From Verrucomicrobiota bacterium (GTDB lineage Bacteria; Verrucomicrobiota; Verrucomicrobiia; Limisphaerales; JADLHS01), in assembly GCA_039806955.1 (NCBI GenBank), contig JBDHQI010000003.1:29856-93855 (forward strand): DNA of 64,000 bases, given 5' to 3'. Both the position numbers and the translations under genes were made by a program. Under the pieces are notes generated by a model that worked only from the letters and a program-made list of their open reading frames with translations, searched no databases and was not told the DNA's origin. Shown here one piece after another: positions 1-31,041 of this stretch (position 1 is the stretch's first letter; every line of letters starts with the position of its first letter).

Positions 1-1921
1 GTTCGTGCGCGGAAGACTCCATCGGCGGATGCTGCTTGCGCCAGTTCTCCTCCGCGATTTTGCCGTGCGCGACTGTGCTCGTGAGCACGAGGTCCATTTC
101 ACACTTCGGACATTTTCCGGGTTTGTCGGAGACCACATCGGCATGAACTGCCATCGGGCAGGTATAGAGCGTGGAAGGAATCGCGGCTGAAGTTGCAGAT
201 GGTTGAGGAATCGGCGGTGCTTCCATCACGGGAATGAGTGTCATGGCGCACTTGGGGCAGTTGCCGGGTTTCTCCGCGCGCACGTCATTGTGTTCGGGCA
301 TCGGGCAGGTGTAGTAAAGGAGCTTCCCGCCGGGTTGTAGTTTTTTCAGCGTCGCTTGAGACACGGGCACGAGCGTCATGGCGCACAGCGGGCACTTGCC
401 GGGTTGGTTGTATTCAATGGAGACGTGCTCCGGCATCGGGCAGATGTATTTGACGGTTGCGTTGGTGGCGGCGGAAGCCATGCCGGGCATTCCCTCGTGA
501 CCTGTTGCTGTCGCGCTTTCCTTGCCCGCCGATGTCGCCGGGCCGGATTCTTTTGGCTTCAACATCTTTTGGATGGCCTCGCGAAGTTGGCTCTCCGAAT
601 CCAACATGAATTGGCCGGACGTAACGATTCGTTCGCCTTCGTTCAATCCACTCAACACTTGATACATGTCACCCTCGGCCTGCGGACCGAGCGTGACGGT
701 GCGCGGATCGAACTTGCCGCCGTCCAACGCCACGAAAACGGTGGTCTTCTCACCGCTGCGCAAAATGGCCATGTCGGGCGCGAGCAACGCGGACGGTTCT
801 AACTCCGACATAACCTGAACCGTGGCAAACATTCCGGGTTTGAGGAAATAGCCGGGGTTGTGGAACTCCATCCGCACTTTTGCGGTGCGGGTTTTCTCGT
901 CCACATTCGGATAGATATAAGTCACCCGCCCACGGAACTCGCGGTCGTTCAGATACGAAAGTGTGACGGTCGCTTCCTGGCCGAGCTTGAGATAAACCAA
1001 ATCCTGTTCGTAAATCTGCGCCTGCACCCAGACCAGTCCCAAGTCAGCCAGCCGGTAAATCTTCATGCCGGCATCCACCATCTGGCCTTGGACCACCATT
1101 TTATCAGCTACAAATCCATCCTGCGGCGCGACGATTCGCAATGTCTTCGTCGCTTTCCGTGTCTTCTCCAGTTCGGCGATCTGCTCGTCTGAAATGTCGA
1201 AGAATTTCAATTTCGTCAGCGCGGAAGTTTTGAGTGCATCATTTCCCGCGCCCGCTTTGTTCGCGGGATCGGTGGCGAGCAGATACTCGACTTGCGCGCT
1301 GTAAAGCTCGGGCGAATAAATCTCGAACAGCGGATCGCCCTTCATCACCAGTTGCCCGGTGGCATTCACGTGAAGCTTTTCAATCCAGCCTTTGAACTTG
1401 GTCGTCACGTCCGCCAGCGCCGTCTCGTTATATTCAATCGCGCCGACAGTGCGAATGGCCCGGCGCAGCGGTCCTCGCGTGACGGTCGCGGTTCGGATTC
1501 CCATAGTCTGCGTGGTCACCGGGTCAACCGCGATGGCGGAAGATTCTGCCGCCGCCGCTTCATCTTCGTAAACCGCGACCATGTCCATGCCCATGCTGTC
1601 CTTGCCCGGCCCGGGCTTCACCTCGCCGGGATTCATGGTGGATTTGTAGTATTTAATCTTCCGTTCGCCGGACGTGGTAGGCGTGCCGCTTGCACCCGAT
1701 GCCTGTTTGCGAATGGGCGTGAGCTTCATGCCGCAAATCGGGCAGTTGCCGGGCGTGTCTTGAACGACCTGCGGGTGCATTCCGCAGGTGTAAAGGGTTT
1801 TGCCTTCCTTGGCGGACTCGCTCGTGACGGCGTGGTTGTGGCCGGTGGAACGTCCGGCGAAAAATGCGCCCACGCCAACTACGGCGATGGCAATAATGGC
1901 AACAATGGTCTTGGCTTTCAT
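1..1921 (-). CDS. RND efflux periplasmic adaptor (CusB/CzcB-type MFP) carrying 4 heavy-metal-binding CxxC modules; C-terminus runs off the window
   Basis: Not in ORF track because it leaves the window. My minus-strand translation from ATG 1921-1919 stays open to nt 1: MKAKTIVAIIAIAVVGVGAFFAG.. It has an N-terminal LYTCGMHPQVVQDTPGNCPICGMKL and an MFP core (VGAIEYNETALADVTTKFKGWIEKLHV; RIVAPQDGFVADKMVVQGQMV). Three C-terminal modules follow: KYICPMPEHV..PGKCPLCAMTL, YYTCPMPEHNDV..PGNCPKCAMTL, LYTCPMAVHADV..PGKCPKCEMDL. Confidence 0.85.
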   Translation of the reverse strand, partial: MKAKTIVAIIAIAVVGVGAFFAGRSTGHNHAVTSESAKEGKTLYTCGMHPQVVQDTPGNCPICGMKLTPIRKQASGASGTPTTSGERKIKYYKSTMNPGEVKPGPGKDSMGMDMVAVYEDEAAAAESSAIAVDPVTTQTMGIRTATVTRGPLRRAIRTVGAIEYNETALADVTTKFKGWIEKLHVNATGQLVMKGDPLFEIYSPELYSAQVEYLLATDPANKAGAGNDALKTSALTKLKFFDISDEQIAELEKTRKATKTLRIVAPQDGFVADKMVVQGQMVDAGMKIYRLADLGLVWVQAQIYEQDLVYLKLGQEATVTLSYLNDREFRGRVTYIYPNVDEKTRTAKVRMEFHNPGYFLKPGMFATVQVMSELEPSALLAPDMAILRSGEKTTVFVALDGGKFDPRTVTLGPQAEGDMYQVLSGLNEGERIVTSGQFMLDSESQLREAIQKMLKPKESGPATSAGKESATATGHEGMPGMASAATNATVKYICPMPEHVSIEYNQPGKCPLCAMTLVPVSQATLKKLQPGGKLLYYTCPMPEHNDVRAEKPGNCPKCAMTLIPVMEAPPIPQPSATSAAIPSTLYTCPMAVHADVVSDKPGKCPKCEMDLVLTSTVAHGKIAEENWRKQHPPMESSAHE

Positions 1922-1922
1922 A

Positions 1923-2345
1923 TCAGTGGGAGGATGGCGTCACCGAGTCGGAGGAATTGGTTGAGTTGTTCACGGACGGGGCAACCGTCCAGCCAGGAAT
2001 CGGCGGATGGCCGGGCGGCAAAGTCCGTTCCGGCACAGGTTCGTTTGTGCTTTTGGCGGCGCAGCAACCAGGATGATTCTCGCCGCTGCTGCCGCATTGT
2101 TCGTGGCCGGCTTTCATCTCGCCCGCAGGCACGAGGGCCATGCCGCACTTCGGGCAATCGCCCGGCTTGGCGCTCACCACGTCGGGGTGCATCGGACAGG
2201 TGTATTGCCCGCTGGCGACAGTTTTCGCCCGCACGTTTTGCAGGCGGGTTGGCACGTCGAAATACAGGCCCGCTGCCGCGCCGACAAAAATCGTCAATAC
2301 AAGAATGCCGAGAAACAGCCGGAGATTTTTGGAGAAGAAGTTCAT
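1923..2345 (-). CDS. membrane-anchored heavy-metal-binding-domain (HMBD) protein
   Basis: 140-aa ORF with an N-terminal TM (LRLFLGILVLTIFVGAAAGLY), then [25 protein letters not shown] and a Cys/His tail (HEQCGSSGENHPGCCAA). It lies between the tolC-like and MFP genes with 1-18 nt gaps. Confidence 0.7.
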   Translation of the reverse strand: MNFFSKNLRLFLGILVLTIFVGAAAGLYFDVPTRLQNVRAKTVASGQYTCPMHPDVVSAKPGDCPKCGMALVPAGEMKAGHEQCGSSGENHPGCCAAKSTNEPVPERTLPPGHPPIPGWTVAPSVNNSTNSSDSVTPSSH

Positions 2346-3835: not shown

Positions 3836-3982
3836 CTAGTGACAAGAACCCTGATGCGTGGAATGATCGGCTGCGCCGTCGCCTGTGGAAGCGCATCCCG
3901 TCAAAAAGATCACGCCCGCGAGTGCTACCGCGAGCGCGATGAGAGCGAAATTGATTTTGGAAAGGTCTCGGATTGGTTTCAT
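3836..3982 (-). CDS. mini-lipoprotein; predicted mature 19-aa His/Cys-tailed peptide
   Basis: Internal ATG (3982) of the 86-aa track ORF gives MKPIRDLSKINFALIALAVALAGVIFLTGC/ASTGDGAADHSTHQGSCH. Lipobox LTGC. It sits between the promoter motif at 4103-4127 and the tolC-like gene. A paralogue-like ORF lies at 20525-20644. Confidence 0.5.
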   Translation of the reverse strand: MKPIRDLSKINFALIALAVALAGVIFLTGCASTGDGAADHSTHQGSCH

Positions 3983-4102
3983 GGTCGGTTTCAAGTTTTG
4001 TCGTTGCTTTATTACCATTGCGACTCCGCCCCCATCGTTTGGGGCAGCGGAGTCGCGCAATTTTCCGCTTTGTGATCGGGAGCTTTTCCGCTCCACACAT
4101 TG

Positions 4103-4127
4103 ATTACGTTGTCGGAGACGGAATCCC
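4103..4127 (-). promoter_or_regulatory. ECF-type promoter candidate GGGATT-N13-CGTAAT
   Basis: Minus strand reads GAGGGATTCCGTCTCCGACAACGTAATCAAT. Geometry is the same as five other sites in the window. It lies 121 nt upstream of the 3982 start, ahead of the RND operon 1 genes. Confidence 0.55.
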
Positions 4128-4150
4128 TCCAGATTTTTTCTGTGGCCTGC

Positions 4151-4534
4151 TTAATGAAGCGGAGCGTATGGGACGGTGAGATAAACGTGGTGTGCGATGT
4201 ATTGGCTGGCCGCAAAATGCGCTTGCGTGCCCGATGCCGGATGGAAATGCACCTTCACGGATCTTCCTGGTTCAATCTCCTCGGGCCGAATCGGAATCCC
4301 GTTCTTCCAAAACTTTGTGCTCCTGTCCCACGCGAAGACAACAGGCTCACCCGGCTTCAACGGCAACAAGGTGAGACTTTGGTTTGTGAGATTTATGGAC
4401 TGGAGTGTGCCGTCGAAGCTCAAGCCGTGAATTGATCCGGGGTAGGCGCGGTGACTCGCGCAACCAGACCAAACCAAACCGGCCATGAGGAGAGTAAAGC
4501 CAGCGATCAGGAAATTCTTTCGCGTGGTTTTCAT
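4151..4534 (-). CDS. small lipoprotein, tandem paralogue of 4531-4872
   Basis: Start moved to MKTTRKNFLIAGFTLLMAGLVWSGC (lipobox). ATGA overlap with the upstream stop (4531-4534). It shares S-I-(N/E)-L-T-N..L.L...K....F.W..ST.F motifs with its neighbour. Confidence 0.6.
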   Translation of the reverse strand: MKTTRKNFLIAGFTLLMAGLVWSGCASHRAYPGSIHGLSFDGTLQSINLTNQSLTLLPLKPGEPVVFAWDRSTKFWKNGIPIRPEEIEPGRSVKVHFHPASGTQAHFAASQYIAHHVYLTVPYAPLH

Positions 4535-4872
4535 TTCTGATTTCGGTTGGCCTCGCTCCACCGCACTTCACGCAACACAAGTTTTCCGCTCTCTCTGCGG
4601 TAATACACCTTGATGGGCTGGCCTGCACGAAGTGAATTGGGCGATGTCTTTTGCCCGCCAACAAGAAAGCGCGTGGAATCCTTCCAGATGAAGATGCGAT
4701 TGGTCGCAGCCTTGGGTTCAGTCAGAACCAGAGTATGGTTCGTCAGCTCAATGCTTTGAACCACACCTTGAGCCGGATGCTGCACGGGCGGACGCGCCTG
4801 AGTCTCGAATGCCGCCAACGTCACGCCGAGCAGAATCAGAAAGCGAGTTAAAATGAGCGCGGGGAGTTTCAT
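4531..4872 (-). CDS. small secreted protein, tandem paralogue of 4151-4534
   Basis: Start moved to ATG 4872 (MKLPALILTRFLILLGVTLAAFETQA, signal peptide). The upstream part of the 173-aa track ORF is Arg/Gly-rich and looks non-coding. Confidence 0.6.
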   Translation of the reverse strand: MKLPALILTRFLILLGVTLAAFETQARPPVQHPAQGVVQSIELTNHTLVLTEPKAATNRIFIWKDSTRFLVGGQKTSPNSLRAGQPIKVYYRRESGKLVLREVRWSEANRNQK

Positions 4873-4919
4873 AGGTCTTTCATTGGTTCTCTTGTGGCAA
4901 AAAGACTGCGCGACACCGT

Positions 4920-5222
4920 TCAGTGTTGCATCAATAACGTTGCGCCTTTTACCGGCTCGCTGCTTCCAACGCTTGTGTGATGGCCCGCGTTGTTGGTGGC
5001 GCAGGAGGTCGTGATCACCGCGAGCAACACGGCCAGCGCCGCCGCTTGGCACGCTTTGATTGCGCGCGGTGATCGAATTGTGCTTGCGGAGTTCATTGAT
5101 GGTTGCTCAATGAGATTGCTGTTTCCCGGCGTGGGAATCGGGCGGGACGCCGCCGCGCACATTGCCAGAACGAAGAGCGCTGCGAGCAGCGTCCACAGAA
5201 TTGCGATGAGCCAGATTCCCAT
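4920..5222 (-). CDS. small hydrophobic protein (or a 58-aa His-containing lipoprotein from an internal start)
   Basis: 100-aa ORF with two hydrophobic segments. The internal MNSASTIRSPRAIKACQAAALAVLLAVITTSC/ATNNAGHHTS..LLMQH would be a short lipoprotein. There is no homology anchor. Confidence 0.35.
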   Translation of the reverse strand: MGIWLIAILWTLLAALFVLAMCAAASRPIPTPGNSNLIEQPSMNSASTIRSPRAIKACQAAALAVLLAVITTSCATNNAGHHTSVGSSEPVKGATLLMQH

Positions 5223-5258: not shown

Positions 5259-5729
5259 TTACTTCAGCGGCGCAACTTCCACGTTTTTCTTCTCCATGCC
5301 TTTGGTGGCAACGCTGCTGCCCTTGCTCGTGTTGCAGCATGCGGCACTTTCCGCGCCGCATGACGAGCAAGTGTGGGTGGCAACGGATTGTTTGGCTTTG
5401 CCGTGGCCCACGATTTTCCAATCCGTTCCGCAGCCGTCGCAGAGGTGCGTCGAGACGCGGATGAGCGGCTTGTTTGCCCCTCGCGCGGAATAATCCACTC
5501 GCTCCGTCACTTTGTCTTTGCACTTTGCGCACGGCATCGCCGGGATTTCGGCAACCGCAGGAACAGGACTGTGATTCCGCTTATACTCATCGAGGAACTG
5601 GCGCTGTTTCGGCGAGGCAGTAATGCCATCGTCGCCCGTGGGTTTGTATTGGGCCTGTGCTGAACCGGCGAACAGGGACAGGGCAATGCCTGCCAGCGCC
5701 GCGATCAGGAGGTTGTTTGTGCGTTTCAT
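5259..5729 (-). CDS. secreted fusion protein: one ASPK repeat + 8-Cys domain + VAPLK tail
   Basis: Signal peptide MKRTNNLLIAALAGIALSLFAGSAQA, then GDDGITASPKQRQFLDEY. The Cys domain follows: PCAKCK..THLCDGCG..HGKA..THTCSSCGAESAACCNT..KGMEKK. It ends NVEVAPLK. Confidence 0.75.
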   Translation of the reverse strand: MKRTNNLLIAALAGIALSLFAGSAQAQYKPTGDDGITASPKQRQFLDEYKRNHSPVPAVAEIPAMPCAKCKDKVTERVDYSARGANKPLIRVSTHLCDGCGTDWKIVGHGKAKQSVATHTCSSCGAESAACCNTSKGSSVATKGMEKKNVEVAPLK

Positions 5730-6125: not shown

Positions 6126-6575
6126 CTACTTGAGCGGCGCGACCTCGATGGTTTCCGCCGCAGGCTTGTAACCCCGCGCGAGCCACGGAAACTGTTCAAT
6201 GGCCCTCGGGCTGGCCGCGTAAGCGCGATTCTTGAGCACCCTGGCAATCTCACTGTTCACGGATGCTGGTGTGGTCGTCGGCTTCGCGGTGTTGACGCGG
6301 GCCAACTGCGGGAACTGCTCCAACATGCGCGGGCTGGCGGCCAGCGCGCGGTTGTTCCTGATGTTGGCTGGAACGCTGTCGAAGCGTGTGCTTGATGCCG
6401 TCGTCGCCGACGACTGACGTGTCAGCCAGGGGAACTGCTCCTTCGCACGCGGACTGGCGGCGATGGCGCGGTTGGACAAGTCTTTGACCGAGAAGTCGGC
6501 GGCTTGGATGGTTGCGGTTGCGGTGAGGAGAGCGGCGGCGACCGCTCCCAGCAGAAGTGTTTGTGTCGTTTTCAT
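6126..6575 (-). CDS. secreted repeat protein (3x AASPR..EQFPxL) with IEVAPLK tail
   Basis: 149-aa ORF with a signal peptide ..ATATIQA. Repeats are RAIAASPRAKEQFPWL, RALAASPRMLEQFPQL and RAYAASPRAIEQFPWL. The C-terminus is ETIEVAPLK. Confidence 0.7.
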   Translation of the reverse strand: MKTTQTLLLGAVAAALLTATATIQAADFSVKDLSNRAIAASPRAKEQFPWLTRQSSATTASSTRFDSVPANIRNNRALAASPRMLEQFPQLARVNTAKPTTTPASVNSEIARVLKNRAYAASPRAIEQFPWLARGYKPAAETIEVAPLK

Positions 6576-15773: not shown

Positions 15774-16244
15774 ATGGCAGAATCTCTTTTCAAAGTTGGT
15801 GAACTAGCCGAGCGCGCCGAAGTCGGTGTGCAGACGCTGCATTATTACGAGCGGCTTGGACTGTTGCCGAAACCAGAACGCTCCGCCTCGAATTATCGTC
15901 TTTACCCGACGGATGCCCTTCGCCGAGTCCAGTTCATCAAGAAATCTCAATCGCTCGGTTTTGCGTTGGAGGAAATCAAAGAGATTCTCGGCTTGCGCGG
16001 GCAAGGCCGCGCTCCCTGCCGCTGCGTTGCGGACGTGGGCAAAAAGCATTTGAAAGAGTTGGATGCGCGCATTGCGGCGTTGCAGGAATTCCGGCGGGCG
16101 TTGGCAGCCGTCGTGCCGAAATGGGAAAAGGAAACGTCACGTCAACGGAAGTGTGCGGGCGAGTTTTGCGATTTAATCGAGCGTTTGCCCCAGATTCCAA
16201 GCGGCCCTCCTCCTCTTGAAAAACGGGTAAGAAAAGGCCCTTGA
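15774..16244 (+). CDS. MerR-family heavy-metal-responsive transcriptional regulator
   Basis: N-terminal wHTH FKVGELAERAEVGVQTLHYYERLGLL, then a coiled-coil dimerisation helix. Cys ligand candidates are PCRC and, ~46 aa later, KCAGEFC. Confidence 0.9.
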   Translation: MAESLFKVGELAERAEVGVQTLHYYERLGLLPKPERSASNYRLYPTDALRRVQFIKKSQSLGFALEEIKEILGLRGQGRAPCRCVADVGKKHLKELDARIAALQEFRRALAAVVPKWEKETSRQRKCAGEFCDLIERLPQIPSGPPPLEKRVRKGP

Positions 16245-16272
16245 CCCTCTAGCCAGATAGAGGCTGTAGGTT
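16241..16272 (+). promoter_or_regulatory. MerR-type promoter/operator: TTGACC - 19/20 bp spacer containing dyad CCTCTA-N6-TAGAGG - TAGGTT
   Basis: Sequence TTGACCCTCTAGCCAGATAGAGGCTGTAGGTT overlaps the merR-family stop codon and lies 29 nt upstream of the merT-like start. An over-long spacer carrying a dyad is the hallmark of MerR-family activated promoters. Confidence 0.55.
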
Positions 16273-16300
16273 TGTTCAGAAACTGAAACTGGAAAAGTTT

Positions 16301-16912
16301 ATGGACAAATCGAAAGCTCTACAAAAGGCCACGTTGGGCGGCAGTCTTCTCGCTGCTGTCATTGCCTCGCTGTGTTGCATCGGGCCGCTGCTCGCGGTGG
16401 CGTTCGGACTCGGCGGCTTTGCCGCGTCCGCCGTGTTTGAAAAATGGCGACCGGTATTTTTGGGCGTGACGTTCGCCCTGCTCGCGCTGGCCTGGTATCT
16501 TACTTATCGCAAACCGAAAGAAAGCTGCGAGGAAGGCTCGGCCTGCGCGACCAAGCCGGCGGGCAAATGGAACAAAGTAGTTTTGTGGATTGCTACGGGC
16601 ATTGTCTTACTCACGACCGCCTTTCCCAGTCTTTCGTCGGTGATCCTTCGCGGAACGCAGTCGAGTGTTCCCGGCGCGGTCGCGGGCGATAACAGCGTCG
16701 TCTTGAAGGTGGAGATACCGAGCATGGATTGCGCGGCGTGCGCCGTCAGCATCCAGACGAAAATGCGCAAGCTGGCAGGCGTCATCACCGCCAGCGTCAA
16801 CTACGACACGAAGGAGGCCGAGGTGCAATACGACGCCACAAAACTCGCGCCGGAGAAGATCATCGCGGCCATTGATGAAACCGGGTTCAAGGCCGAGCCT
16901 GCCAACAAATAA
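16301..16912 (+). CDS. MerT-like transporter fused to a MerP-like HMA domain (MerTP)
   Basis: TM1 has the vicinal Cys pair (ASLCCIGPLLAV) and there is a second Cys pair, CEEGSAC. The C-terminal ferredoxin-like HMA domain carries MDCAACAVSI. Confidence 0.85.
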   Translation: MDKSKALQKATLGGSLLAAVIASLCCIGPLLAVAFGLGGFAASAVFEKWRPVFLGVTFALLALAWYLTYRKPKESCEEGSACATKPAGKWNKVVLWIATGIVLLTTAFPSLSSVILRGTQSSVPGAVAGDNSVVLKVEIPSMDCAACAVSIQTKMRKLAGVITASVNYDTKEAEVQYDATKLAPEKIIAAIDETGFKAEPANK

Positions 16913-16933
16913 TTTCAACCAAGTCACCCTACG

Positions 16934-17446
16934 ATGTCAGACTGCTGCTTAATCAACTCAACGGATGAAAAGCCTTGCCCCGAAACAGAGAGGGCCGGAG
17001 CGAGCAATTGCCCGGAATGTGGTCACCCCGGCAAGGCCGTCGAAACGAAAACGCTGAAACAAATGGTGCAACCGCAGCACCTCGAACTTGCCAGCAAGCC
17101 GGGTTTCTTGTTTTGCCGCACCGCAGATTGCGACGTGGTTTATTTCCATCCTGACGGCGACTGTTTGCGGAAGCCCGATGTGCGCGTGCGGGTGGGACTC
17201 AAGGAAACCGAAGATCCCGTGCCTGTCTGCTACTGCTTCGGGTTCACGGAGGCGATGGCCGTGGAGGAAATCCGTGCGACCGGCAAATGCAGCATCCCGC
17301 GACGCATCACCGCCGAAGTGAAAGCCGGAAACTGCGCCTGCGAAATCCGCAATCCGCAAGGCTCATGCTGTCTGGGCAACGTCAACGCCGCAGTCAAAAG
17401 AGTGATGAGACTCATGGCGGTCGAAAACCCGGCAGCACTCCCCTGA
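16934..17446 (+). CDS. Cys-rich CopZ-N-terminal-domain-like metallochaperone (Zn/[2Fe-2S]-type)
   Basis: CPECGHPGKAVETKTL.., FLFCRTADCDVVYF, RVGLKETEDPVPVCYCFGF and NPQGSCCLGNV. This matches my recollection of the Archaeoglobus CopZ N-terminal domain family. I cannot confirm it without a profile search. Confidence 0.65.
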   Translation: MSDCCLINSTDEKPCPETERAGASNCPECGHPGKAVETKTLKQMVQPQHLELASKPGFLFCRTADCDVVYFHPDGDCLRKPDVRVRVGLKETEDPVPVCYCFGFTEAMAVEEIRATGKCSIPRRITAEVKAGNCACEIRNPQGSCCLGNVNAAVKRVMRLMAVENPAALP

Positions 17447-18209: not shown

Positions 18210-19357
18210 AGATTTCCTTTCGATTCAGTTGCTTTTCCGAGCATTGCCTCCGGCACGGAACAAATCACGGTGACACCTGCGCCGGGTTCGATGTTCACCT
18301 TTAATTGCCCGCCAATCAGTCGAGCACGCTGTTCCATCGTGCGCAAACCCAGGCCGTGGCAATTCTTCTGCGTGTCAAAACCGACGCCGTTGTCACGCAC
18401 GCGCAATTCCACATCTGCGGGGCGGCGCACCAGCTCAATGGCGATCCGCGAAGCGTGCCCGTGCTTGAGCGCGTTATGCACCGCTTCCTGCGCGATACGA
18501 TAAATGTGACTCGCCACATTCAGGTCATGCACCACAATCGCATCGGAAGACAATTCGGACGTGATGCCGTAACTGGCAGAAATACGTTCAGCGAGACTGT
18601 CCAACGCCTGAACCAAACCGTCGGGCTGCGGCGGCACGGCGTAAAGTTCGTGAGACAGATCGCGCGCCTGGGTGATGGCGGTGGCGAGCTCCTTGGAAAG
18701 TTGCGCGGCGATTTCGGCCTGTGCCGAGTTGGCGGATTTCAAATCACGATGCAGTCCGTTCATCAAAAAGAGCAATCCGCCAAGCTGTTGCCCCAAGCCA
18801 TCGTGCAATTCCCTCGCGATGCGGGAGCGTTCCTGCTCCGCCGCTGCCGCGACCGTCTGCTCAAGCTGCCGCCGCTCGGCTTCGCTCTGACGAAGCTTCT
18901 CCTCGGCGCGTTTGCGCTCGGTGATGTCGGCACGGATGGCGATGTATTGGCGGGGTTTGCCATGTTCGTCGAGGAAAGGGACGATGGTGGTATCCACCCA
19001 ATAAAACGAACCGTCCTTGGCCTTGTTCTTAATTTCGCCCTTCCAAACCTTGCCACGCGCAATGGTCGTCCACAGGCCGCGCATGAATTCCTTGGCATGG
19101 TGGCCGGAATTGATTACGCGGTGGTCCTGACCCAAGAGTTCCTCACGCGAATACTTCGAGATCGCGCAGAACTTGTCGTTGACGTAGGTAATCTTTCCTT
19201 GCGGATCGGTGATGGCCACGATGGCGTGCTCGTCGAGCGCGGCCTTCAATTCAGCCACTTCGCGATACCGCTCGTCACCTTGTGCAGAATGGGTTTTGCT
19301 CATCCGGTCTCCTTGGTTGTTTTCGGCGGTGGAAGTGGATCGCCACTTCCCGACCAA
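18206..19357 (-). CDS. cytoplasmic PAS-domain sensor histidine kinase (HisKA_3/NarX-type)
   Basis: PAS (AIVAITDPQGKITYVNDKFCAISKYSREELLGQDHRVINSG..), H-box IARELHDGLGQQL, and HATPase N/G boxes (QEAVHNALKHG; DNGVGF; GLGLRTMEQRA). An alternative start is ATG 19303. Confidence 0.9.
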   Translation of the reverse strand: MVGKWRSTSTAENNQGDRMSKTHSAQGDERYREVAELKAALDEHAIVAITDPQGKITYVNDKFCAISKYSREELLGQDHRVINSGHHAKEFMRGLWTTIARGKVWKGEIKNKAKDGSFYWVDTTIVPFLDEHGKPRQYIAIRADITERKRAEEKLRQSEAERRQLEQTVAAAAEQERSRIARELHDGLGQQLGGLLFLMNGLHRDLKSANSAQAEIAAQLSKELATAITQARDLSHELYAVPPQPDGLVQALDSLAERISASYGITSELSSDAIVVHDLNVASHIYRIAQEAVHNALKHGHASRIAIELVRRPADVELRVRDNGVGFDTQKNCHGLGLRTMEQRARLIGGQLKVNIEPGAGVTVICSVPEAMLGKATESKGNL

Positions 19358-19438
19358 ATGCAGAGGAACGGCAGCGCGCTGCCGAGGGCATAAAGCAGGA
19401 AGATGGCGACAATGAACGCAGTCATGTTTTGCCCAGGA

Positions 19439-20452
19439 TTACTCTTTCGCCACATTCAGAGTGAACCGCGCGAATTTGGACACGCCGCCGATTTGGACTT
19501 GGGCGTAGAGTCGCATCAGGCCGGGTTGCTCGGGTTCAATGTGGAACTCCAGACTGCCCGCGCCGCGATCGGCATCTGACTTCGGCTCTGCGCCCATCGG
19601 GTGAATGTGGACGATGGATTTGTAATCTTCGCCAAAGCCCACAAGGTGCGCGTAGGTGGCCATGATGGGTTCAAGCTGGGTGAAGATTTTTCCGTCGGGC
19701 GAGGTGATGCGGAGTTTGCCCATCGTGGCTTCGCCAACCTTGAGCTTGGCTTTGTTGAACACGACTTCGTATTTCAACCCTTCCACCTCGGTCACCGTCT
19801 TGATGTCCCGCTCAGTGATCGGTTCGCCCTGGGTGGGTGCGGCGATGTCCGTCATGGAATACTCCTGCGCGTCCGTGGCGACAGGGAGCAAGTCTGCCCA
19901 TGCACGATAAGCGCCCGGCTTGAGTGGTGTGAAGCTGAAGGCGTATTCGCCCGGTGTGCCGGTCGGCACGGGGTGTTCGTGATGATAATCCGTGAGGCTC
20001 TGGTCGTTGATGAGCAGGTGAATCTTTTTCGTGTGCGCGTCCTTCAAGTCGGAGAGCAGCACGGGCGAGCCGTCCTTCTTGGTCAGCCGCAAGATGGCTT
20101 CGGCCTTCTGCCCCACCTGCAAAGGCGCGGTGGTGGTGACGGTGGCGATGAGCGTCGGCTCGGTGGCATGGCCGCCGTGTGCGCCTTCCTCGTGTCCGCC
20201 GCCTGCGACCTGTTTCAACGTCATGCCGCACTTGGGACATTTGCCCGGTTTGTCGGATTCACTGCCCTCGCACTTCATCGGACAGATGTATTTGGCGGCG
20301 GCAACGGCGTGTTCATGGCCGGCCTTTTCAGCAGTGGCATGATCGTGGCCGGGCGCTTCGCCAGCGCTGTGTTCGTGTTCGCTGCGGTTGCAGGCGGTGA
20401 ACGCCAGCGCGATGGCCAGCACGGAAACGGAGAGGAGCAATGTTTTCTTCAT
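19439..20452 (-). CDS. lipoprotein with His-rich linker, HMBD module and two Ig-like (YtkA/FixH-like) domains
   Basis: Start moved to ATG 20452 (MKKTLLLSVSVLAIALAFTAC). HEHSAGEAPGHDHATAEKAGHEH, then YICPMKCEGSESDKPGKCPKCGMTL, then ..IHLLINDQSLTDYHHEHP.. and ..HIHPMG.. Confidence 0.75.
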   Translation of the reverse strand: MKKTLLLSVSVLAIALAFTACNRSEHEHSAGEAPGHDHATAEKAGHEHAVAAAKYICPMKCEGSESDKPGKCPKCGMTLKQVAGGGHEEGAHGGHATEPTLIATVTTTAPLQVGQKAEAILRLTKKDGSPVLLSDLKDAHTKKIHLLINDQSLTDYHHEHPVPTGTPGEYAFSFTPLKPGAYRAWADLLPVATDAQEYSMTDIAAPTQGEPITERDIKTVTEVEGLKYEVVFNKAKLKVGEATMGKLRITSPDGKIFTQLEPIMATYAHLVGFGEDYKSIVHIHPMGAEPKSDADRGAGSLEFHIEPEQPGLMRLYAQVQIGGVSKFARFTLNVAKE

Positions 20453-20524
20453 GGATTTTGGATTGATGAGTTTGGTGCGCGGCGGGTGGACGACCAAAGT
20501 CGCCCGCCCGCCGCCGAGATTTTA

Positions 20525-20644
20525 TTAGTGGCTATGCGTGTGAGTCGCGGAAGGCTGGCTGGAATTATCCTCCATGCTGGCGCAGCCGGTCAGCATAAGG
20601 CCCGCCGCCAACAACGTGAGCAAGACGGTGATTTTGATTTTCAT
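20525..20644 (-). CDS. mini-lipoprotein (39 aa; predicted mature 19-aa His-tailed peptide), absent from ORF track
   Basis: My translation gives ATG 20644 .. TAA 20527-20525: MKIKITVLLTLLAAGLMLTGC/ASMEDNSSQPSATHTHSH. Lipobox and mature length match 3836-3982. It is wedged between two HMBD genes. Confidence 0.5.
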   Translation of the reverse strand: MKIKITVLLTLLAAGLMLTGCASMEDNSSQPSATHTHSH

Positions 20645-20673: not shown

Positions 20674-21234
20674 TCAGTGTTTGTGTTCGTCCTTTTTGGC
20701 CACGAGCTTCATGCCGCACTTGGGGCATTTACTGGGGCTGTCCTGCACCACGTCTTCGTGCATCGGGCAGGTGTATTGCATCGCGTGCTCGCCGCTTTCC
20801 ATCTTCATGCCGAACTGCGTTCCCAGCACTTTGAGCAAGCCGTCGAGCTTCTTGAGGTTCGCCTCGGTCTTCGCCTGATCCTTCGCGTCGCCGGAGGCGT
20901 CGAGGTCCTCGGCCAGCTTGGCGATGTTCTTTACCGTGCCTTCGACCTGGGTTTTCTTGTCTGCGGGAGCTTTGGGCACGAGCGCCTTCGCCAAGTCACG
21001 GATTTCAAAGGCAGTTTCGTGGACCTTTTCGAGCTGCTTCTTTTCCACGATTTCCTTCAACTCCGCGTGGTGCTCTTTGATTTCCTTCCAGATACCTTCG
21101 ACCGTGTCGGGGATTTTCGCCTTCTCCCCGGCCTTGTGTTCGTGGCCTTCCTGCGCCGACGCGGTGGTGGCGGTCAGGCCGGTAAATCCGATGGCGGCGC
21201 AAAGCCCCATCGCCAGTAGTGTTTTCATTTTCAT
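20674..21234 (-). CDS. periplasmic helical protein with C-terminal HMBD module
   Basis: Signal peptide ..TATTASA, a Lys/Glu-rich helical domain, then YTCPMHEDVVQDSPSKCPKCGMKLV and a KDEHKH tail. Its start overlaps the RND pump stop by 1 nt (TAATG). Confidence 0.75.
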   Translation of the reverse strand: MKMKTLLAMGLCAAIGFTGLTATTASAQEGHEHKAGEKAKIPDTVEGIWKEIKEHHAELKEIVEKKQLEKVHETAFEIRDLAKALVPKAPADKKTQVEGTVKNIAKLAEDLDASGDAKDQAKTEANLKKLDGLLKVLGTQFGMKMESGEHAMQYTCPMHEDVVQDSPSKCPKCGMKLVAKKDEHKH

Positions 21235-24200
21235 TATTTTTCTTTCGTGGTTGCTTCTCCAACACCGGACGCAACACCGGTTTCCGCCAACGTGGCGGCG
21301 GCGTCTTGTTTGCGATGTTGGGGAAAATCATTTGAGCCGTTCCCCGGCAAAGCCGGGATGGCATCCAGTGGATCGGTCTGGTCGCGCTGGATGTATTTCT
21401 CCGCCGCTTTGCGGCCGAATTTGAAAAACACGGCGGGCGTCACCGCCATGTCGAGCAGCGTCGAGCTGATGAGTCCGCCGAGAATGACAACGGCGACCGG
21501 ATACAAAATCTCTTTACCGGGCTGACCCGCCGCGAGCACGAGCGGAATGAGCGCCAGGCCCGCGACGGCGGCGGTCATCGTCACGGGCACGAGCCGTTCG
21601 AGCGAGCCGCGCACGATCATCTTCTCGTCGAACTTCTCGCCCTCGTGTTCCATCAGGTGGATGTAGTGCGAAATCATCATGATGGTGTTGCGCGAGGCGA
21701 TGCCGGCCAGCGTGATGAGGCCGACGAGCGTGGCGATGGAAACTTTGCCGACCATGAAGTAGGTCAGCGCCAGCCCACCGATGAACGCCAGCGGGATGTT
21801 CAGCAGGATTTGCCCAACAATCATCGTCGAGCGGAAGTGTGAAAAGAGGACGAGGAACATCGTCGCCAGCGTCACGATGGAAAGGATGCCGATGAGCCGT
21901 GTGGCTTCCTGCTGGCTCTGGAACTGGCCTTCGTAGCTGATGAAGAAACCGGTCGGCAAGTGAACCTTCTCGGTAATCTTCTTTTGAATTTCAGTGACGA
22001 CCGCCCCGAGGTCGCGCCCGGAGACGTTCGCCTGAACCACGATGCGCCGCTGGACGTTTTCGCGGTTGATGATGTTCGGGCCTTTGCTCTCGCGCACGTC
22101 CGCCAGCAACGCCAGCGGAACTTTCTGGCCGTTGGCCGTATCCACGAGCATCTGGCGCATGTCTTCAACGTGGTTGCGCGACACTTCGTCGTAGCGGACA
22201 AACACATCGTAAGTCTTCTGGCCGTCGAGCACCTGGGCGACCGTTCGACCGTTGAGCGCGGTTTCGAGCAGCTCGTTGAGTTCGCCCACTTGAATGCCAT
22301 AGAGCTTGGCCTTTTCGCGGTCGGGCTGGATGCGGACTTGCGGCATCAACACCTGCTTCTCGATCTGCAAATCCACGATGCCCTCCACGGTTTTCATCTG
22401 GCCCTCGACCTCGGCGGCGGCGGCGCGTAACGCTTCGAGGTTCTCGCCGAAAATCTTCACGGCGATTTGCGCGCGCACGCCGGAAAGCAAATGATCCAGT
22501 CGGTGCGAAATCGGCTGGCCCACGCTGAAGACCACGCCGGGGATTTGGCCGAGTTTGTCGCGCACGTCGTCGAGGATTTGCTCGCGCGTTCGTTTGGACT
22601 TGCGGAAGTCCACGTCAATTTCGGTGTAGTGAACGCCTTCGGCGTGTTCATCCAGTTCCGCGCGCCCGGTGCGGCGTCCGGTGGAGATGACTTCGGGGAC
22701 GGTGAGCAAAAGCTTCTCGGCGATTTCGCCGATGCGGTCGGATTGTTTGAGCGACGTGCCGGGTGCGGACAGCACGTTGATGGTGGCCGTGCCTTCGTTG
22801 AACTCCGGCAAAAATTCCTTGCCCATCATCGGGTAAAGCGCGAATGAGCCGATCACCAGCACCAGCGCGATGCCCATTACCCACCACGGATGGCGCAGCG
22901 TGTATTTCAAAATCACCGCGCGGTCGAAGGCTTTGAGTTGCCGCACGACCCAGCCGTCCGCCTCGTGTTCCATGCGTTTCATGCGCGGCAACAGGTAGGA
23001 ACAGAGCGCGGGAATCACCGTCAACGACACGACGAACGACGCAATCATTGCCACGATGGTCGCCACGCCGATGGGTGCGAACAATCGGCCTTCAATGCCG
23101 CCCAATCCGAACAGCGGGATGAACACCAGGATGATGAGCAGCGTGGCGAACAGGATGGAGTTCCGCACTTCCGCCGAAGCGTTGGCGATGACGCGCAGAA
23201 CCGGCTTCGGTTGCGTCGCGTGGCGGTTCTCGCGCAGGCGGCGGAAGACGTTTTCCACATCTACAATCGCGTCGTCCACCACCATGCCGATGGCTACGGC
23301 CAGACCGCCGAGCGTCATGGTGTTGATGGTGATGCCCGCCCACTTGAAATAGAGAATCGTCACAACGAACGACAGCGGGATGGCCGTGAGCGTGATGAGC
23401 GTGGTGCGGAAGTTCAGCAGGAACAGGAACAGGATGATGACGACCATGATCGCGCCGTCGCGAATGGCTTCTTCGACGTTGCTGATGGCGGCGTCAATGA
23501 AGCTGGCCTGCTTGAACAGCGGCGTGATTTTGATGTCGGCGGGCAAACCTTTTTGGATTTCGGCCAGCGCCTTCTCGACTTCAGCGGTGAGTTTGATGGT
23601 GTCCATGCCGGGCTGTTTCTGCACCGACACAATGACGGCGGACACGCCGTTGACGCCCGCGTCGCCGCGCATGACCCGTTTGTCGAACTTCACCTCGGCC
23701 ACGTCCTTGAGCAGGATGGGCACGCCCTGGCGCGATTCGATGACGGTGTTGGCGATGTCCTCGATGGCGATGCTGCGTCCGATATTACGGATGAGCGCCT
23801 CTTGGTTCGCGCCTTCGAGAAATCCACCGGCGGTGTTGACCTGCGACTTCTCAGCGGCATCAGTGACTTGTTTGAGCGTGATGCCAAAGGCCGCCATCTT
23901 CTCCGGCGAAGCAAGCACCTGGTATTGTTTCACGCCGCCGCCAATCGGGATGACTTGCGATACGCCCGGAATGGTCAGCAGGCGCGGGCGCACCGTCCAA
24001 TCGGCGATGGTGCGCACGTCCATCGGCGCGGTCTTGCCGCCCTCGCTCGACAGGCCGATCAACATGATCTCGCCCATGATGGAGGAAATCGGACCCATCA
24101 CCGGGCTGACGCCCTTGGGCAATTTTTCGGCGGCAAGTTGCAGACGTTCCTGAACAAGTTGGCGAGCGCGATAGATGTCCATGCCCCAATCGAATTCCAC

Positions 24201-24482
24201 GTAAAGAATCGAAAGTCCGATGCCGGAGTTGGAGCGGACACGCTTGACGCCCGGTGCGCCGTTCAACGCGGTTTCCAGCGGCAGCGTGACCAGCGTCTCG
24301 ACTTCTTCGGGCGCGAGGCCGGCCGCTTCCGTGAGGATGTTGACGGTCGGGCGGTTCAAGTCCGGGAACACGTCCACCGGCAGTTTGAGCGCCACGAACG
24401 CGCCGTAAGCCAGCACGAGGATGCTGGCCGCCACGATGAACAGGCGGTTGCGCAGCGAAAATTCAATGAGGCGGTTTAACAT
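21234..24482 (-). CDS. heavy-metal-efflux RND inner-membrane pump (CusA/CzcA family)
   Basis: 1082-aa, 12-TM RND architecture. MLNRLIEFSLRNRLFIVAASILVLAYG N-terminus. The TM4 motif is AIGMVVDDAIVDVENVFRRL. Confidence 0.95.
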   Translation of the reverse strand: MLNRLIEFSLRNRLFIVAASILVLAYGAFVALKLPVDVFPDLNRPTVNILTEAAGLAPEEVETLVTLPLETALNGAPGVKRVRSNSGIGLSILYVEFDWGMDIYRARQLVQERLQLAAEKLPKGVSPVMGPISSIMGEIMLIGLSSEGGKTAPMDVRTIADWTVRPRLLTIPGVSQVIPIGGGVKQYQVLASPEKMAAFGITLKQVTDAAEKSQVNTAGGFLEGANQEALIRNIGRSIAIEDIANTVIESRQGVPILLKDVAEVKFDKRVMRGDAGVNGVSAVIVSVQKQPGMDTIKLTAEVEKALAEIQKGLPADIKITPLFKQASFIDAAISNVEEAIRDGAIMVVIILFLFLLNFRTTLITLTAIPLSFVVTILYFKWAGITINTMTLGGLAVAIGMVVDDAIVDVENVFRRLRENRHATQPKPVLRVIANASAEVRNSILFATLLIILVFIPLFGLGGIEGRLFAPIGVATIVAMIASFVVSLTVIPALCSYLLPRMKRMEHEADGWVVRQLKAFDRAVILKYTLRHPWWVMGIALVLVIGSFALYPMMGKEFLPEFNEGTATINVLSAPGTSLKQSDRIGEIAEKLLLTVPEVISTGRRTGRAELDEHAEGVHYTEIDVDFRKSKRTREQILDDVRDKLGQIPGVVFSVGQPISHRLDHLLSGVRAQIAVKIFGENLEALRAAAAEVEGQMKTVEGIVDLQIEKQVLMPQVRIQPDREKAKLYGIQVGELNELLETALNGRTVAQVLDGQKTYDVFVRYDEVSRNHVEDMRQMLVDTANGQKVPLALLADVRESKGPNIINRENVQRRIVVQANVSGRDLGAVVTEIQKKITEKVHLPTGFFISYEGQFQSQQEATRLIGILSIVTLATMFLVLFSHFRSTMIVGQILLNIPLAFIGGLALTYFMVGKVSIATLVGLITLAGIASRNTIMMISHYIHLMEHEGEKFDEKMIVRGSLERLVPVTMTAAVAGLALIPLVLAAGQPGKEILYPVAVVILGGLISSTLLDMAVTPAVFFKFGRKAAEKYIQRDQTDPLDAIPALPGNGSNDFPQHRKQDAAATLAETGVASGVGEATTKEK

Positions 24483-30834: not shown

Positions 30835-31041
30835 TCAGCGTTTTTCGACTAGCGCCATACCGCACTTGGGGCAGCTACCGGGCTTGTCCTGCACAACTTC
30901 CGGGTGCATACCACATGTGTATTTGACGGCCTGTCCACTGCCTTGCGTGGAGGATTCTTTTTTGCAGCCGGTCGCACCAATGGCAATGACTGCGACTGCT
31001 GCAACCGTGAACGCAGCGATGATGAGTTTGGATGTCTTCAT
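30835..31041 (-). CDS. small lipoprotein consisting of one HMBD module
   Basis: [26 protein letters not shown], then a short linker, then [28 protein letters not shown]. Confidence 0.7.

Follow-up and report, generated by a model that had tools for sequence, protein, structure and literature searches.

Two tiny predicted lipoproteins with candidate metal-binding tails accompany HME-RND efflux operons in Verrucomicrobiota

A 64-kb stretch of DNA from a Verrucomicrobiota bacterium, referred to here in its entirety as the window, carries two very short reading frames (ORF1 and ORF2) that, judged by their pattern of conservation, are very probably real translated genes. We lean toward the interpretation that their products are lipid-tethered periplasmic metal-capture peptides that would work with the neighboring pumps. 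The features on which this analysis draws are listed in Table 1.

Table 1. Features of the two operons (positions in the window; all features lie on the minus strand; HME-RND, heavy-metal-efflux RND; HMBD, heavy-metal-binding domain; MAG, metagenome-assembled genome)
Feature	Coordinates	Strand	Description
ORF1	20525..20644	-	39-aa prolipoprotein, family 1, tail H-x-H-x-H-COOH
ORF1 signal peptide	20585..20644	-	Residues 1-20, MKIKITVLLTLLAAGLMLTG, includes lipobox L-T-G
ORF1 predicted mature peptide	20528..20584	-	Cys21-His39, 19 aa; H-T-H-S-H encoded at 20542-20528
337-aa HMBD lipoprotein	19439..20452	-	His-rich tether CNRSEHEHSAGEAPGHDH... after lipobox; downstream neighbor of ORF1
GC-rich hairpin after ORF1	20479..20514	-	No U tract; MFE -34.1 kcal/mol, z -6.45
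186-aa secreted helical protein	20674..21234	-	C-terminal HMBD (Pfam 1.6e-13), KDEHKH tail; upstream neighbor of ORF1
HME-RND pump, operon 1	21234..24482	-	1082 aa; TIGR00914 826.5 bits vs cutoff 701
Adaptor (membrane fusion protein), operon 1	25731-24496	-	Pfam HlyD_D23 1.3e-37
Outer membrane factor (OMF), operon 1	26957-25692	-	Pfam OEP 3.2e-44
ORF2	3836..3982	-	48-aa prolipoprotein, family 2, tail DHS-x-H-QGSCH-COOH
ORF2 signal peptide	3896..3982	-	Residues 1-29
ORF2 predicted mature peptide	3839..3895	-	Cys30-His48, 19 aa; D-H-S-T-H-Q-G-S-C-H encoded at 3868-3839
OMF lipoprotein, 474 aa	2364..3788	-	Pfam OEP 9.4e-36; 47 nt downstream of ORF2
140-aa HMBD protein	2345-1923	-	Operon 2
CusB-like adaptor, several HMBD motifs	1921 to window edge, partial	-	Operon 2; with 140-aa protein spans 1..2345
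Conserved hairpin upstream of ORF2	4020..4056	-	MFE -32 kcal/mol, z -3.74

The two short reading frames and their families

ORF1 translates as MKIKITVLLTLLAAGLMLTGC/ASMEDNSSQPSATHTHSH (20644-20525, minus strand) and ORF2 as MKPIRDLSKINFALIALAVALAGVIFLTGC/ASTGDGAADHSTHQGSCH (3982-3836, minus strand), coordinates and translations being exactly those of the original prediction. The ATG at 3982 is supported as the start of ORF2 because a 1-nt indel just upstream of it, found in a related locus (L090), breaks the longer in-frame extension; the alignment of family 2 also backs this start. In ORF1 a basic n-region (MKIK) is followed by 14 uncharged residues that form the h-region, in ORF2 the n-region MKPIRDLSK is followed by an uncharged stretch, and a basic n-region with an uncharged h-region is kept in all members of both families. 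Both ORFs fit the lipobox pattern [LVI][ASTVI][GAS]-C with the residues L-T-G-C, followed in each case by A-S, and the common LTGCAS context that had been described for them is correct. The G-C of the lipobox is invariant, being preceded by [LF]-T in the alleles of family 1 and by L-[TAV] in family 2, and Asp is never found at position +2 in either family. The mature parts are polar, and the sole hydrophobic segment ends in the lipobox and is predicted to be removed. Judging from these signals, the two products are quite probably processed lipoproteins.

The possibility, raised originally, that the reading frames lack conservation or a synonymous pattern of change is contradicted by their history in diverged relatives, where both are intact with in-frame indels, invariant lipobox and tail residues, and an excess of synonymous changes. 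Purifying selection acts on both families: the uncorrected pN/pS is 0.16-0.73, in most pairs 0.2-0.55, and synonymous sites are near saturation. For family 1 the uncorrected pN/pS is 0.2-0.5 across alleles, with pS up to 0.76; for ORF2 and family 2 it is 0.16-0.73 and mostly 0.4-0.55, with pS up to 0.85 and Fisher p down to 4e-8. ORF1 is constant in length among the six distinct alleles of family 1, which switch the stop codon from TAA to TGA and differ in the h-region by hydrophobic replacements only and one in-frame 3-nt indel. In both families, conservation of the C-terminal motif extends as far as the stop codon.

The window was scanned in all six frames for short ORFs that combine a lipoprotein signal with a short mature part; of the five matches, two are ORF1 and ORF2, and two others also appear genuine. 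When 1.6 Mb of related loci were passed through a class filter (lipoprotein signal, mature part of 10-32 aa, and at least two His in the last six residues), eight matches were found on the operon strand versus none on the opposite strand. By tblastn against all fetched loci, neither ORF has similarity to the 5' ends of neighboring lipoprotein genes. Rfam returned nothing near ORF1 or ORF2 and one tRNA only in the window, and scans for sigma-70 promoters and terminators gave no usable result. No Shine-Dalgarno sequence precedes either ORF, but this is likewise the case for the neighboring genuine genes, so its absence was not counted as evidence. Peptides of this size were originally described as usually unannotated; this does not apply to ORF1 and ORF2, which are both called as genes ('hypothetical protein') in metagenome assemblies, ORF1 on over 50 public contigs.

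Single peptides used as queries in word-indexed protein searches retrieved near-identical sequences only. Family 1 comprises 3-4 clusters at 50% identity in an exhaustive profile search of 1.84 billion representative proteins, family 2 comprises 32 clusters by profile search, and both families are phylogenetically narrow. The fourth match of the exhaustive family-1 search (P0009, E 8e-5) is doubtful and was excluded from membership; it is a 57-aa lipoprotein with the start CASMED, a different tail, and a non-metal context beside carbonic anhydrase. A RecA (P0011) in the cluster listing of ORF2 is an apparent clustering artefact. All alleles of family 1 end in H-x-H-x-H, in the forms HTHSH, HSHTH, and HNHSH. 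The tail of family 2 is (H)DHS-x-x-QGSCH-COOH, the C-terminal 11 residues being the best-conserved block among 28 aligned sequences, and in one variant (P0040) the tail Cys is replaced by Ser.

The original prediction treated the two peptides as a pair with a shared H-x-T-H-x2-3-H terminus, a motif that fits neither literally: ORF1 has H-T-H-S-H and ORF2 has H-S-T-H-Q-G-S-C-H. The equal mature length that it reported is correct in that both peptides have 19 aa, but it is a coincidence within the family ranges of 19-20 aa (family 1) and 19-22 aa (family 2). ORF1 and ORF2 compared by tblastn give a non-significant E of 0.45. The HMM of family 2 detects family 1 at 25-31 bits (E 5e-7 to 3e-5 among 46,669 ORFs), the alignment covering mainly the h-region, the lipobox, and CAS-x-D, and the reciprocal search of family 2 with family 1 gives E of approximately 1e-3 to 0.2. 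The cross-family score thus comes mostly from the signal peptide and lipobox; the two do not form one demonstrable family, and the pair is therefore an architectural resemblance.

Neither family is covered by Pfam or NCBIfam, the matches being sub-threshold and to signal peptides only. The best in NCBIfam were LptM (15.5 bits, cutoff 27.7) and YgdI/YgdR (12.9 bits, cutoff 42), and in Pfam LPAM_1 only was matched, at 7.5 bits. There was no entericidin match in Pfam for either ORF, and the CusF beta-barrel domain was absent from both peptides in Pfam and NCBIfam at E up to 10; a mature peptide of 19 residues cannot form the CusF barrel. We found no description of such peptides in the literature searched, the coverage of which was incomplete, and this is absence of evidence only.

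Operon context and pump type

ORF1 closes its operon, preceded by the genes for the RND permease and the 186-aa HMBD protein. A CusA/CzcA-family permease, an adaptor, and an OMF are encoded on one strand, the composition of an HME-RND operon. The permease is similar to CusA (3e-152) and ZneA (2e-145), and the Met triad of CusA (M573/M623/M672) is replaced in it by N/Y/H; aligned N, Y, and H are also found at the triad positions in the RNDs of the related loci L008, L011, and L096. Homologues of the 186-aa protein are located before ORF1 in L008, L009, L011, L095, and L096. The 337-aa lipoprotein is the same downstream neighbor in L008, L009, L095, and L096; in L011 a multicopper oxidase follows ORF1 instead. 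PDB sequence searches with both neighbors of ORF1 returned only the HMBD-like N-terminus of Cu-ATPases, and an AlphaFold2 single-sequence model of the 337-aa lipoprotein was discarded (mean pLDDT 39).

The hairpin at 20479..20514 probably marks where the RND transcription unit ends or is processed. It is kept in L008 and L011, and also in L010, a locus from the closest GTDB MAG, in which ORF1 is cleanly absent and the flanking genes are intact. The best segment of the L010 RND is 99% identical. The loss of ORF1 in L010 indicates that it is dispensable there, so that ORF1 is not an obligatory partner of this pump. A PAS histidine kinase and a LuxR-type response regulator are encoded just downstream of the ORF1 module, the kinase having PAS, HisKA_3, and HATPase domains only and no obvious periplasmic sensor domain, and ECF sigma factors are found in the same islands.

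ORF2 is the first gene of a Cus-type operon, the gene order of which was compared through the gene tables of L004, L090, and L091. Its RND gene is located past the left edge of the window and is visible in homologous contigs only. The RND operon setting proposed for both peptides thus stands as conserved synteny, directly in the window for ORF1, which follows its RND gene, but through homologous contigs for ORF2. Members of family 2 are always found immediately upstream of the OMF gene, followed by a CusB-like adaptor with HMBD and the RND, and the spacer from the family-2 stop codon to the OMF start varies from approximately 4 to 150 nt. Such a member is present in approximately 9 of the approximately 70 related OMF loci with upstream sequence. 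No CusF homologue was found among the called genes of the family-2 operons, which are apparently of the CusA type. Upstream of ORF2, the non-coding sequence is almost invariant, with approximately 1-2 changes per 100 nt relative to L090 versus 16 changes in ORF2 itself, and the hairpin at 4020..4056 could either terminate transcription of the gene before it or have a regulatory function.

The pumps of family-2 operons retain M573/M623/M672, as read in three relatives (L181, L184, and L168). L091 contains a 90% homologue of the window's operon, and the N-terminal part of its RND is 90% identical to the Met-triad CusA-type pumps of L181 and L184. The pumps beside HxH-tailed peptides have N, T, or G, then Y, F, or S, then H at the triad positions. 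Tail chemistry thus apparently tracks pump type across these loci, which are few and phylogenetically linked. The partner of ORF2 would presumably be a CusA-type pump for Cu(I)/Ag(I), and the partner pump of ORF1 may possibly have divalent cations as its substrate. In other related OMF loci the same slot is occupied by an HMBD protein, by a YHS-like protein (one of which ends in SAHDHNGH), or by two Met-rich tiny lipoproteins. A metal-related role for the peptides is backed by these comparisons, because the His/Cys tail is the most conserved part, the slot is shared with HMBD, YHS-like, and Met-rich proteins, and the tail appears to track the pump. Short His-rich tails bind metals promiscuously, so that binding alone would not establish the role.

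Proposed role and alternatives

We propose that the 39- or 48-residue precursor is exported post-translationally, after which its lipobox Cys would be acylated and the signal peptide cut off. The product would then be tethered by its lipid anchor, from which a polar, flexible linker of 8-15 residues leads to a cluster of metal ligands at the C-terminus, the tail being kept within approximately 6 nm of the membrane surface on the predicted periplasmic side. There it would most likely bind metal ions and work with the neighboring efflux system, either by capturing metal and handing it off to the adaptor, the pump, or the HMBD proteins, or by local buffering of metal. Taken separately, metal binding by the tail is likely, and direct action of the peptides with the pump is more doubtful. 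A bolder version, which we consider rather unlikely as a whole, is that the peptides represent a new class of minimal 'lipopeptide metallochaperones', ribosomally made, lipid-anchored, and of approximately 20 residues, that would serve as dedicated extra HME-RND subunits in Verrucomicrobiota, taking up periplasmic metal at the membrane surface and passing it into the pump, and fill the role that CusF has in E. coli. Their C-terminal ligands would correspond to the type of pump, with HxHxH accompanying a pump without the Met triad, His/Cys accompanying a CusA-type pump, and Met-rich tails found elsewhere.

An alternative, to which we assign a low probability, is that the lipid-anchored peptides sense metal or modulate a signal, the loaded tail signaling to a two-component system or to an ECF sigma/anti-sigma pair and not to the pump, by analogy with the lipoprotein NlpE, which signals to Cpx. 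The kinase and regulator near ORF1 and the ECF sigma factors of the same islands are consistent with such a role, and the dispensability of ORF1 in L010 would fit a tuning function. However, the adjacent kinase is without an obvious periplasmic sensor domain, the synteny of family 2 is kept with the OMF gene and with no regulator, and the slot is common to HMBD and YHS metal-binding proteins, not to signaling proteins.

Less probable again is a function in the assembly or stability of the outer-membrane channel or tripartite complex, with the peptides as small structural partners comparable to the small lipoproteins that assist envelope machines, the His/Cys tail then serving for protein contacts and not for metal traffic. 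The constant position of family 2 directly upstream of the OMF gene, whose product is itself a lipoprotein, would suit this role, as would the lack of Asp at +2, since by the E. coli rule lipoproteins without Asp at this position are sorted to the outer membrane. Family 1 is not beside an OMF gene, however, and the majority of related OMF genes are without a partner of this kind; in addition, the residues conserved at the free C-terminus (His, Cys, and Asp) are those that classically bind metal, and bona fide metal-binding domains occupy the same slot in relatives.

There is a small chance that the ORFs act in cis as leader or monitor peptides of the SecM, VemP, MifM, or attenuation type, in which translation and not the product controls the downstream genes. 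In favor of this are the position of ORF2 at the head of its operon, the high conservation of its C-terminal block, the strong hairpins flanking the two ORFs, and the near-invariant stretch upstream of ORF2. On the other hand, ORF1 is at the end and not the start of its transcription unit, and the variable spacer between family 2 and the OMF start leaves no fixed geometry for an RNA switch. Given the length of the ribosome tunnel, the signal peptide of a 39-51 aa precursor would still lie mostly within it when translation terminates, so that force sensing during translation is excluded; nor would an invariant lipobox have any purpose in a leader peptide. That the ORFs are non-functional, either chance frames or the decaying 5' remains of longer lipoprotein genes, is suggested by their shortness, the presence/absence polymorphism of ORF1, the narrowness of family 1, and the similar design of the downstream 337-aa lipoprotein (a lipobox, then a His-rich tether), but this very improbable reading appears largely refuted by the purifying selection on frames intact at saturated synonymous divergence, the dissimilarity to neighboring lipoprotein 5' ends, the conservation of the motif up to the stop codon, and the restriction of class-filter matches to the operon strand.

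Relation to known small proteins of metal handling and RND pumps

The interpretation that ORF1 and ORF2 encode metal-capture peptides can be set beside several known systems. [quoted passage not shown] The tiny lipoproteins resemble CusF as small, putatively metal-binding products inside an HME-RND operon, and their proposed role would be functionally analogous, but they have 19-22 residues, are presumably unfolded and predicted to be lipid-anchored, and carry C-terminal His or His/Cys ligands. The N-terminal Met-triad tail of CusB and the CNRSEHEHSAGEAPGHDH tether of the 337-aa neighbor, which follows directly on its lipobox, are likewise short, flexible, ligand-rich segments near the membrane that take up metal for the pump; these are parts of large proteins, whereas here the tail and anchor make up the whole gene product.

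SilE and PcoE are disordered His/Met-rich periplasmic proteins of metal-resistance clusters that bind several ions and probably buffer metal. They are soluble proteins of approximately 120-145 aa with repeated HxxM/MxxH motifs; the peptides described here have no sequence similarity to them and differ in having one short ligand cluster on a predicted lipid anchor. Lipid-anchored proteins that bind or sense copper are represented by CopL of Staphylococcus aureus and NlpE of E. coli, which are folded, with domains exceeding 100 aa, and are not known to be encoded in RND operons. ORF1 and ORF2 would resemble these in the lipid anchor and in metal binding at the membrane surface, in both respects by prediction, but are tiny peptides encoded with RND operons.

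Entericidins A and B and LptM, with precursors of approximately 40-50 aa and mature forms of approximately 20-25 aa, demonstrate that export and processing are possible for prolipoproteins of such short length. They are of the same size class as ORF1 and ORF2 but unrelated in sequence, and have neither a metal-ligand tail nor a known link to efflux operons. AcrZ, a 49-aa accessory of the RND multidrug pump AcrB, provides a precedent for very small proteins as RND accessories. It acts as a retained transmembrane helix on the membrane domain of the pump, whereas the hydrophobic segment of ORF1 and ORF2 is a predicted cleavable signal peptide and the functional part would be the periplasmic tail.

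Metal-binding accessories such as CusF and SilE/PcoE and small RND partners of the AcrZ type are thus already known. If the role proposed here is correct, an anchor with a tail of approximately 5-11 metal-ligand residues would be smaller than any component of this kind yet described, and annotation that takes account of small ORFs would alter the parts list of metal efflux in poorly studied phyla. If the match between tail and pump holds, the tail would offer a simple sequence clue to the substrates of uncharacterized HME-RND pumps.

Two small genes for predicted lipoproteins in metal-efflux operons

ORF1 and ORF2 translate to MKIKITVLLTLLAAGLMLTGCASMEDNSSQPSATHTHSH and MKPIRDLSKINFALIALAVALAGVIFLTGCASTGDGAADHSTHQGSCH, respectively, matching exactly the sequences quoted in the original prediction. 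In both, a basic n-region leads into an uncharged h-region and the lipobox L-T-G-C, with A-S next, but the shared tail motif H-x-T-H-x2-3-H that had been proposed literally fits neither. The predicted mature part, from the Cys on, is indeed 19 residues in each, but this identity is a coincidence within the narrow length ranges of the two families. Peptides of this kind had also been described as usually unannotated; public assemblies already list both genes as 'hypothetical protein'. When all six frames of the window were scanned for short ORFs that combine a lipoprotein signal with a brief mature region, five matches emerged: ORF1, ORF2, a 68-aa lipoprotein with a heavy-metal-binding domain (HMBD), a third, His-containing candidate at 5096-4920, and an apparently spurious one.

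One peptide had been assigned to each RND operon. The RND gene of operon 1 is in the window; that of operon 2 lies outside it: the operon-2 adaptor, which carries several HMBD motifs, runs past the left edge, and the RND gene comes next in homologous contigs. GC-rich hairpins without a U tract are found 3' of ORF1 (-34 kcal/mol, z -6.5) and upstream of ORF2 (-32 kcal/mol, z -3.7), the non-coding stretch around the latter being nearly invariant.

Features of the two operons and their surroundings
Feature	Position	Strand	Remarks
68-aa lipoprotein	30835-31041	minus	lipobox plus one HMBD only; conserved in L010 and L011
Outer membrane factor (OMF), operon 1	26957-25692	minus
Adaptor, operon 1	25731-24496	minus
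CusA/CzcA-family RND pump, operon 1	24482-21234	minus
186-aa secreted helical protein	21234-20674	minus	HMBD at C-terminus
ORF1, operon 1	20644-20525	minus	between 186-aa HMBD protein and strong hairpin
Hairpin 3' of ORF1	20479-20514	minus
337-aa HMBD lipoprotein	20452-19439	minus	mature N-terminus His-rich (CNRSEHEHSAGEAPGHDH...)
41-aa hydrophobic ORF	19300-19425	minus	MTAFIVAIFLLYALGSALPFLCIWSGSGDPLPPPKTTKETG; overlaps kinase start
PAS histidine kinase; LuxR-type regulator			after 41-aa ORF
mer-like module	15774-17446	plus	MerR regulator, MerT-HMA fusion, zf_CopZ protein
Secreted proteins ending E-[VI]-A-P-L-K	6126-6575; 5259-5729	minus
Third tiny-lipoprotein-like reading	4920-5096	minus	MNSASTIRSPRAIKACQAAALAVLLAVITTSC/ATNNAGHHTSVGSSEPVKGATLLMQH; ends in His
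Hairpin upstream of ORF2	4020-4056	minus
ORF2, operon 2	3982-3836	minus
OMF, operon 2	3788-2364	minus
140-aa HMBD protein, operon 2		minus	after OMF
CusB-like adaptor, operon 2		minus	after 140-aa protein
Site of ORF1 absence in L010	20452-20674		corresponds to L010 11794-11900

Several neighboring features were recorded. The mer-like module adjoins the operon-1 regulators, indicating that the window represents a multi-metal resistance island. The 41-aa ORF is called as a gene in the related loci L001-L003, and in L008 a 47-aa gene occupies its slot, judged by position alone. The third tiny-lipoprotein-like reading, among small secreted proteins upstream of ORF2, sits inside a public 100-aa gene call (4920-5222), as callers favor a longer form with an extra N-terminal hydrophobic segment. 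The C-terminal end E-[VI]-A-P-L-K, which may be a sorting or recognition tag, is shared by several secreted, function-unassigned proteins of the window and of loci L167, L129, L168, and L150, none of which has a Pfam family match.

Conservation of the two families

The original prediction was to be abandoned if the ORFs lacked conservation and a synonymous versus non-synonymous pattern in relatives; both are conserved and carry a coding signature, and the prediction therefore survives that challenge. ORF2 differs from its 90% homologue by about 10-11 synonymous and 5-6 non-synonymous changes, and a 1-nt indel just 5' of the ATG at 3982 breaks the longer in-frame extension, fixing the start codon there. 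For ORF2 and its relatives, pN/pS ranges over 0.16-0.73, with most values at 0.4-0.55; pS reaches 0.85, and Fisher p falls as low as 4e-8. A profile search places ORF2 in a family of 32 clusters (family 2). The lipobox G-C is invariant across the alignment of these clusters, and the C-terminal block (consensus S-A-H-D-H-S-S-G-Q-G-S-C-H) shows stronger conservation than either the signal peptide or the linker. Gene order is constant: the peptide gene is followed by the OMF gene, an optional 140-aa HMBD protein, a CusB-like adaptor with HMBDs, and the RND pump, often with a YHS/HMBD P1B-type ATPase nearby. In an OMF-anchored metagenome scan, L118, L133, L137, L140-142, L150, and L168 each proved to have a diverged member immediately 5' of the OMF gene. 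Between the peptide gene and the OMF start codon lie anywhere from about 4 to 150 nt.

ORF1 (family 1) is represented by six distinct alleles (the window, L009, L008, L011, L096, and L095), collected by word-indexed and exhaustive profile searches and from related loci. Each has 39-40 codons, arranged as MK[IF]KI, h-region, [LF]-T-G-C, polar linker, H-x-H-x-H, and a stop that varies from TAA to TGA. A 3-nt indel within the h-region is in frame, a 12-nt indel falls in the flanking spacer, and pairwise uncorrected pN/pS is 0.2-0.5 at pS up to 0.76. That the ORFs are non-functional is contradicted by the selection data and is very improbable.

Family 1 is rare, with four matches, one of them doubtful, in an exhaustive profile search of 1.84 billion representative proteins, and with L011 as the sole carrier among 80 RND-related genome loci. 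Its neighbors are conserved, a 134-186-aa helical periplasmic protein upstream and an HMBD lipoprotein downstream, except in L011, where a multicopper oxidase replaces the latter; the L096 cluster also has genes for CopA-type multicopper oxidase, CopB, and HMA proteins. In the closest reference metagenome-assembled genome (MAG), L010, whose RND is 99% identical in its best segment, ORF1 is cleanly absent; about 150 nt are missing, and the flanking genes and even the hairpin are intact. Because more distant relatives have ORF1, this absence is a loss, so that at least one lineage can do without ORF1. The L010 upstream protein ends ...TAKK, compared to ...VAKKDEHKH in the window; ORF1 and the KDEHKH tail co-occur in the window, L008, L009, and L011, and the L095 upstream protein ends ...GHEHKE.

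Tail composition, pump type, and related peptides

The operon-1 RND resembles CusA and ZneA to about the same degree. N, Y, and H replace the methionines of the CusA triad (M573, M623, M672) in this pump and in the pumps of L008, L011, and L096; in the operon-1 RND they lie within a conserved HRLDH motif. Triad methionines are also missing from the pumps beside two H-x-H-tailed peptides, CESFSDYHSAPGSGSVGGHSH, encoded directly after the RND gene in L019, and CETPPSGGSGPAPGGHRH, encoded last in a metal cluster of L044. The family-2 operon pumps of L181, L184, and L168 keep all three. For the out-of-window operon-2 RND we used L091, a close homologue of operon 2, whose RND N-terminal part is 90% identical to the L181/L184/L168-type pumps and 35% to the operon-1 type. 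His-only tails thus pair with a triad-less pump and His/Cys tails with a CusA-type pump, in a small sample of phylogenetically non-independent loci. The operon-1 RND subtype was also found at 73-86% identity in MAGs of Opitutae, Chthoniobacterales, and even Myxococcota or 'Deltaproteobacteria', a distribution that points to a pump type of wide occurrence, which may have spread horizontally.

Direct comparison of the ORF1 and ORF2 peptides gave no significant similarity. The best non-self matches of the family-2 HMM are family 1 (25-31 bits), aligned mostly over the h-region, lipobox, and CAS-x-D, and the reciprocal search is weaker. By sequence comparison they appear to be two families with one architecture, for which common descent is possible.

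A filter for a lipoprotein signal, a mature part of 10-32 aa, and at least two His among the last six residues gave eight matches in 1.6 Mb of related loci, all of them on the operon strand. The L019 and L044 peptides share the architecture of the two families, and so do those of L111, where the family-2 slot is taken by a tandem pair of tiny lipoproteins whose tails are rich in Met and His, CSTSSGGGMQPMSSGEHQQMSK and CSTTTSTGDGMKPMKGGEHLMMLNK (4053-4199 and 4782-4937), upstream of an OMF gene 71% identical to that of the window; a 161-aa protein of this locus also contains the motif MKPMKGGEHLMM. In other relatives of the OMF gene the slot 5' of it is filled by an HMBD protein, by a YHS-like protein (SAHDHNGH, an echo of the family-2 tail, ends one of these), or by a Cys-rich protein with the C-terminus PLYQ(R/Q)NCTFLI, indicating that it is generally used for small secreted metal-binding proteins. 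The Cys-rich secreted protein, which has no Pfam match, precedes the more distant OMF relatives of L155-L178 (e.g. L174 3133-3627) and seems to represent one more small, unclassified accessory of heavy-metal-efflux (HME) RND operons.

Predicted function

On balance we favor the prediction that ORF1 and ORF2, genes of uncultured organisms, encode pump-associated metal-binding lipopeptides. Conservation, synteny, and the pump-type match uphold the original reading insofar as the genes are real, conserved, and likely to serve a function related to metals; its mechanism is a proposal. The precursors would be exported post-translationally, being too short for the signal peptide to leave the ribosome before termination, and the Cys would be lipidated and the signal peptide cleaved off. 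The product would be an anchor plus 18-21 residues, which would limit the reach of the tail to about 6-7 nm from the membrane surface. Position +2 is occupied by A, E, V, G, Q, or T, never D; by the E. coli rule, unvalidated in Verrucomicrobiota, a non-Asp residue would direct outer-membrane sorting. Metal would be bound by the ligands clustered at the C-terminus along with the free carboxylate, and the peptide would hand it to, or buffer it for, the adaptor, pump, or HMBD proteins encoded nearby.

A role as sensor or modulator is unlikely, and one as assembly factor for the OMF or the complex somewhat more so. That the ORFs are cis-acting leader or monitor peptides is improbable: ORF1 lies at the operon end, spacers are variable, force sensing would require longer precursors, and a lipobox is superfluous in a leader peptide.

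Among small proteins that invite comparison with the favored metal-binding lipopeptides, SilE and PcoE are disordered metal sponges, the entericidins are lipoproteins of the same size class, AcrZ is a small accessory of an RND pump, and the lipoproteins CopL and NlpE bind copper; none matches in sequence. The nearest analogue by proposed function, also without a sequence match, is CusF, a soluble chaperone with a beta-barrel fold that is encoded in cusCFBA and supplies CusB with Cu(I) (PMC7558416). Neither family is covered by a Pfam or NCBIfam model, members are publicly named 'hypothetical protein' or mislabeled, for example as LpoA or YajG, and comparable peptides were not found in the literature searched. 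Judged from their sequences, the ORF1 and ORF2 peptides would represent a new form of a known class, the small periplasmic metal-binding accessories of HME-RND systems.
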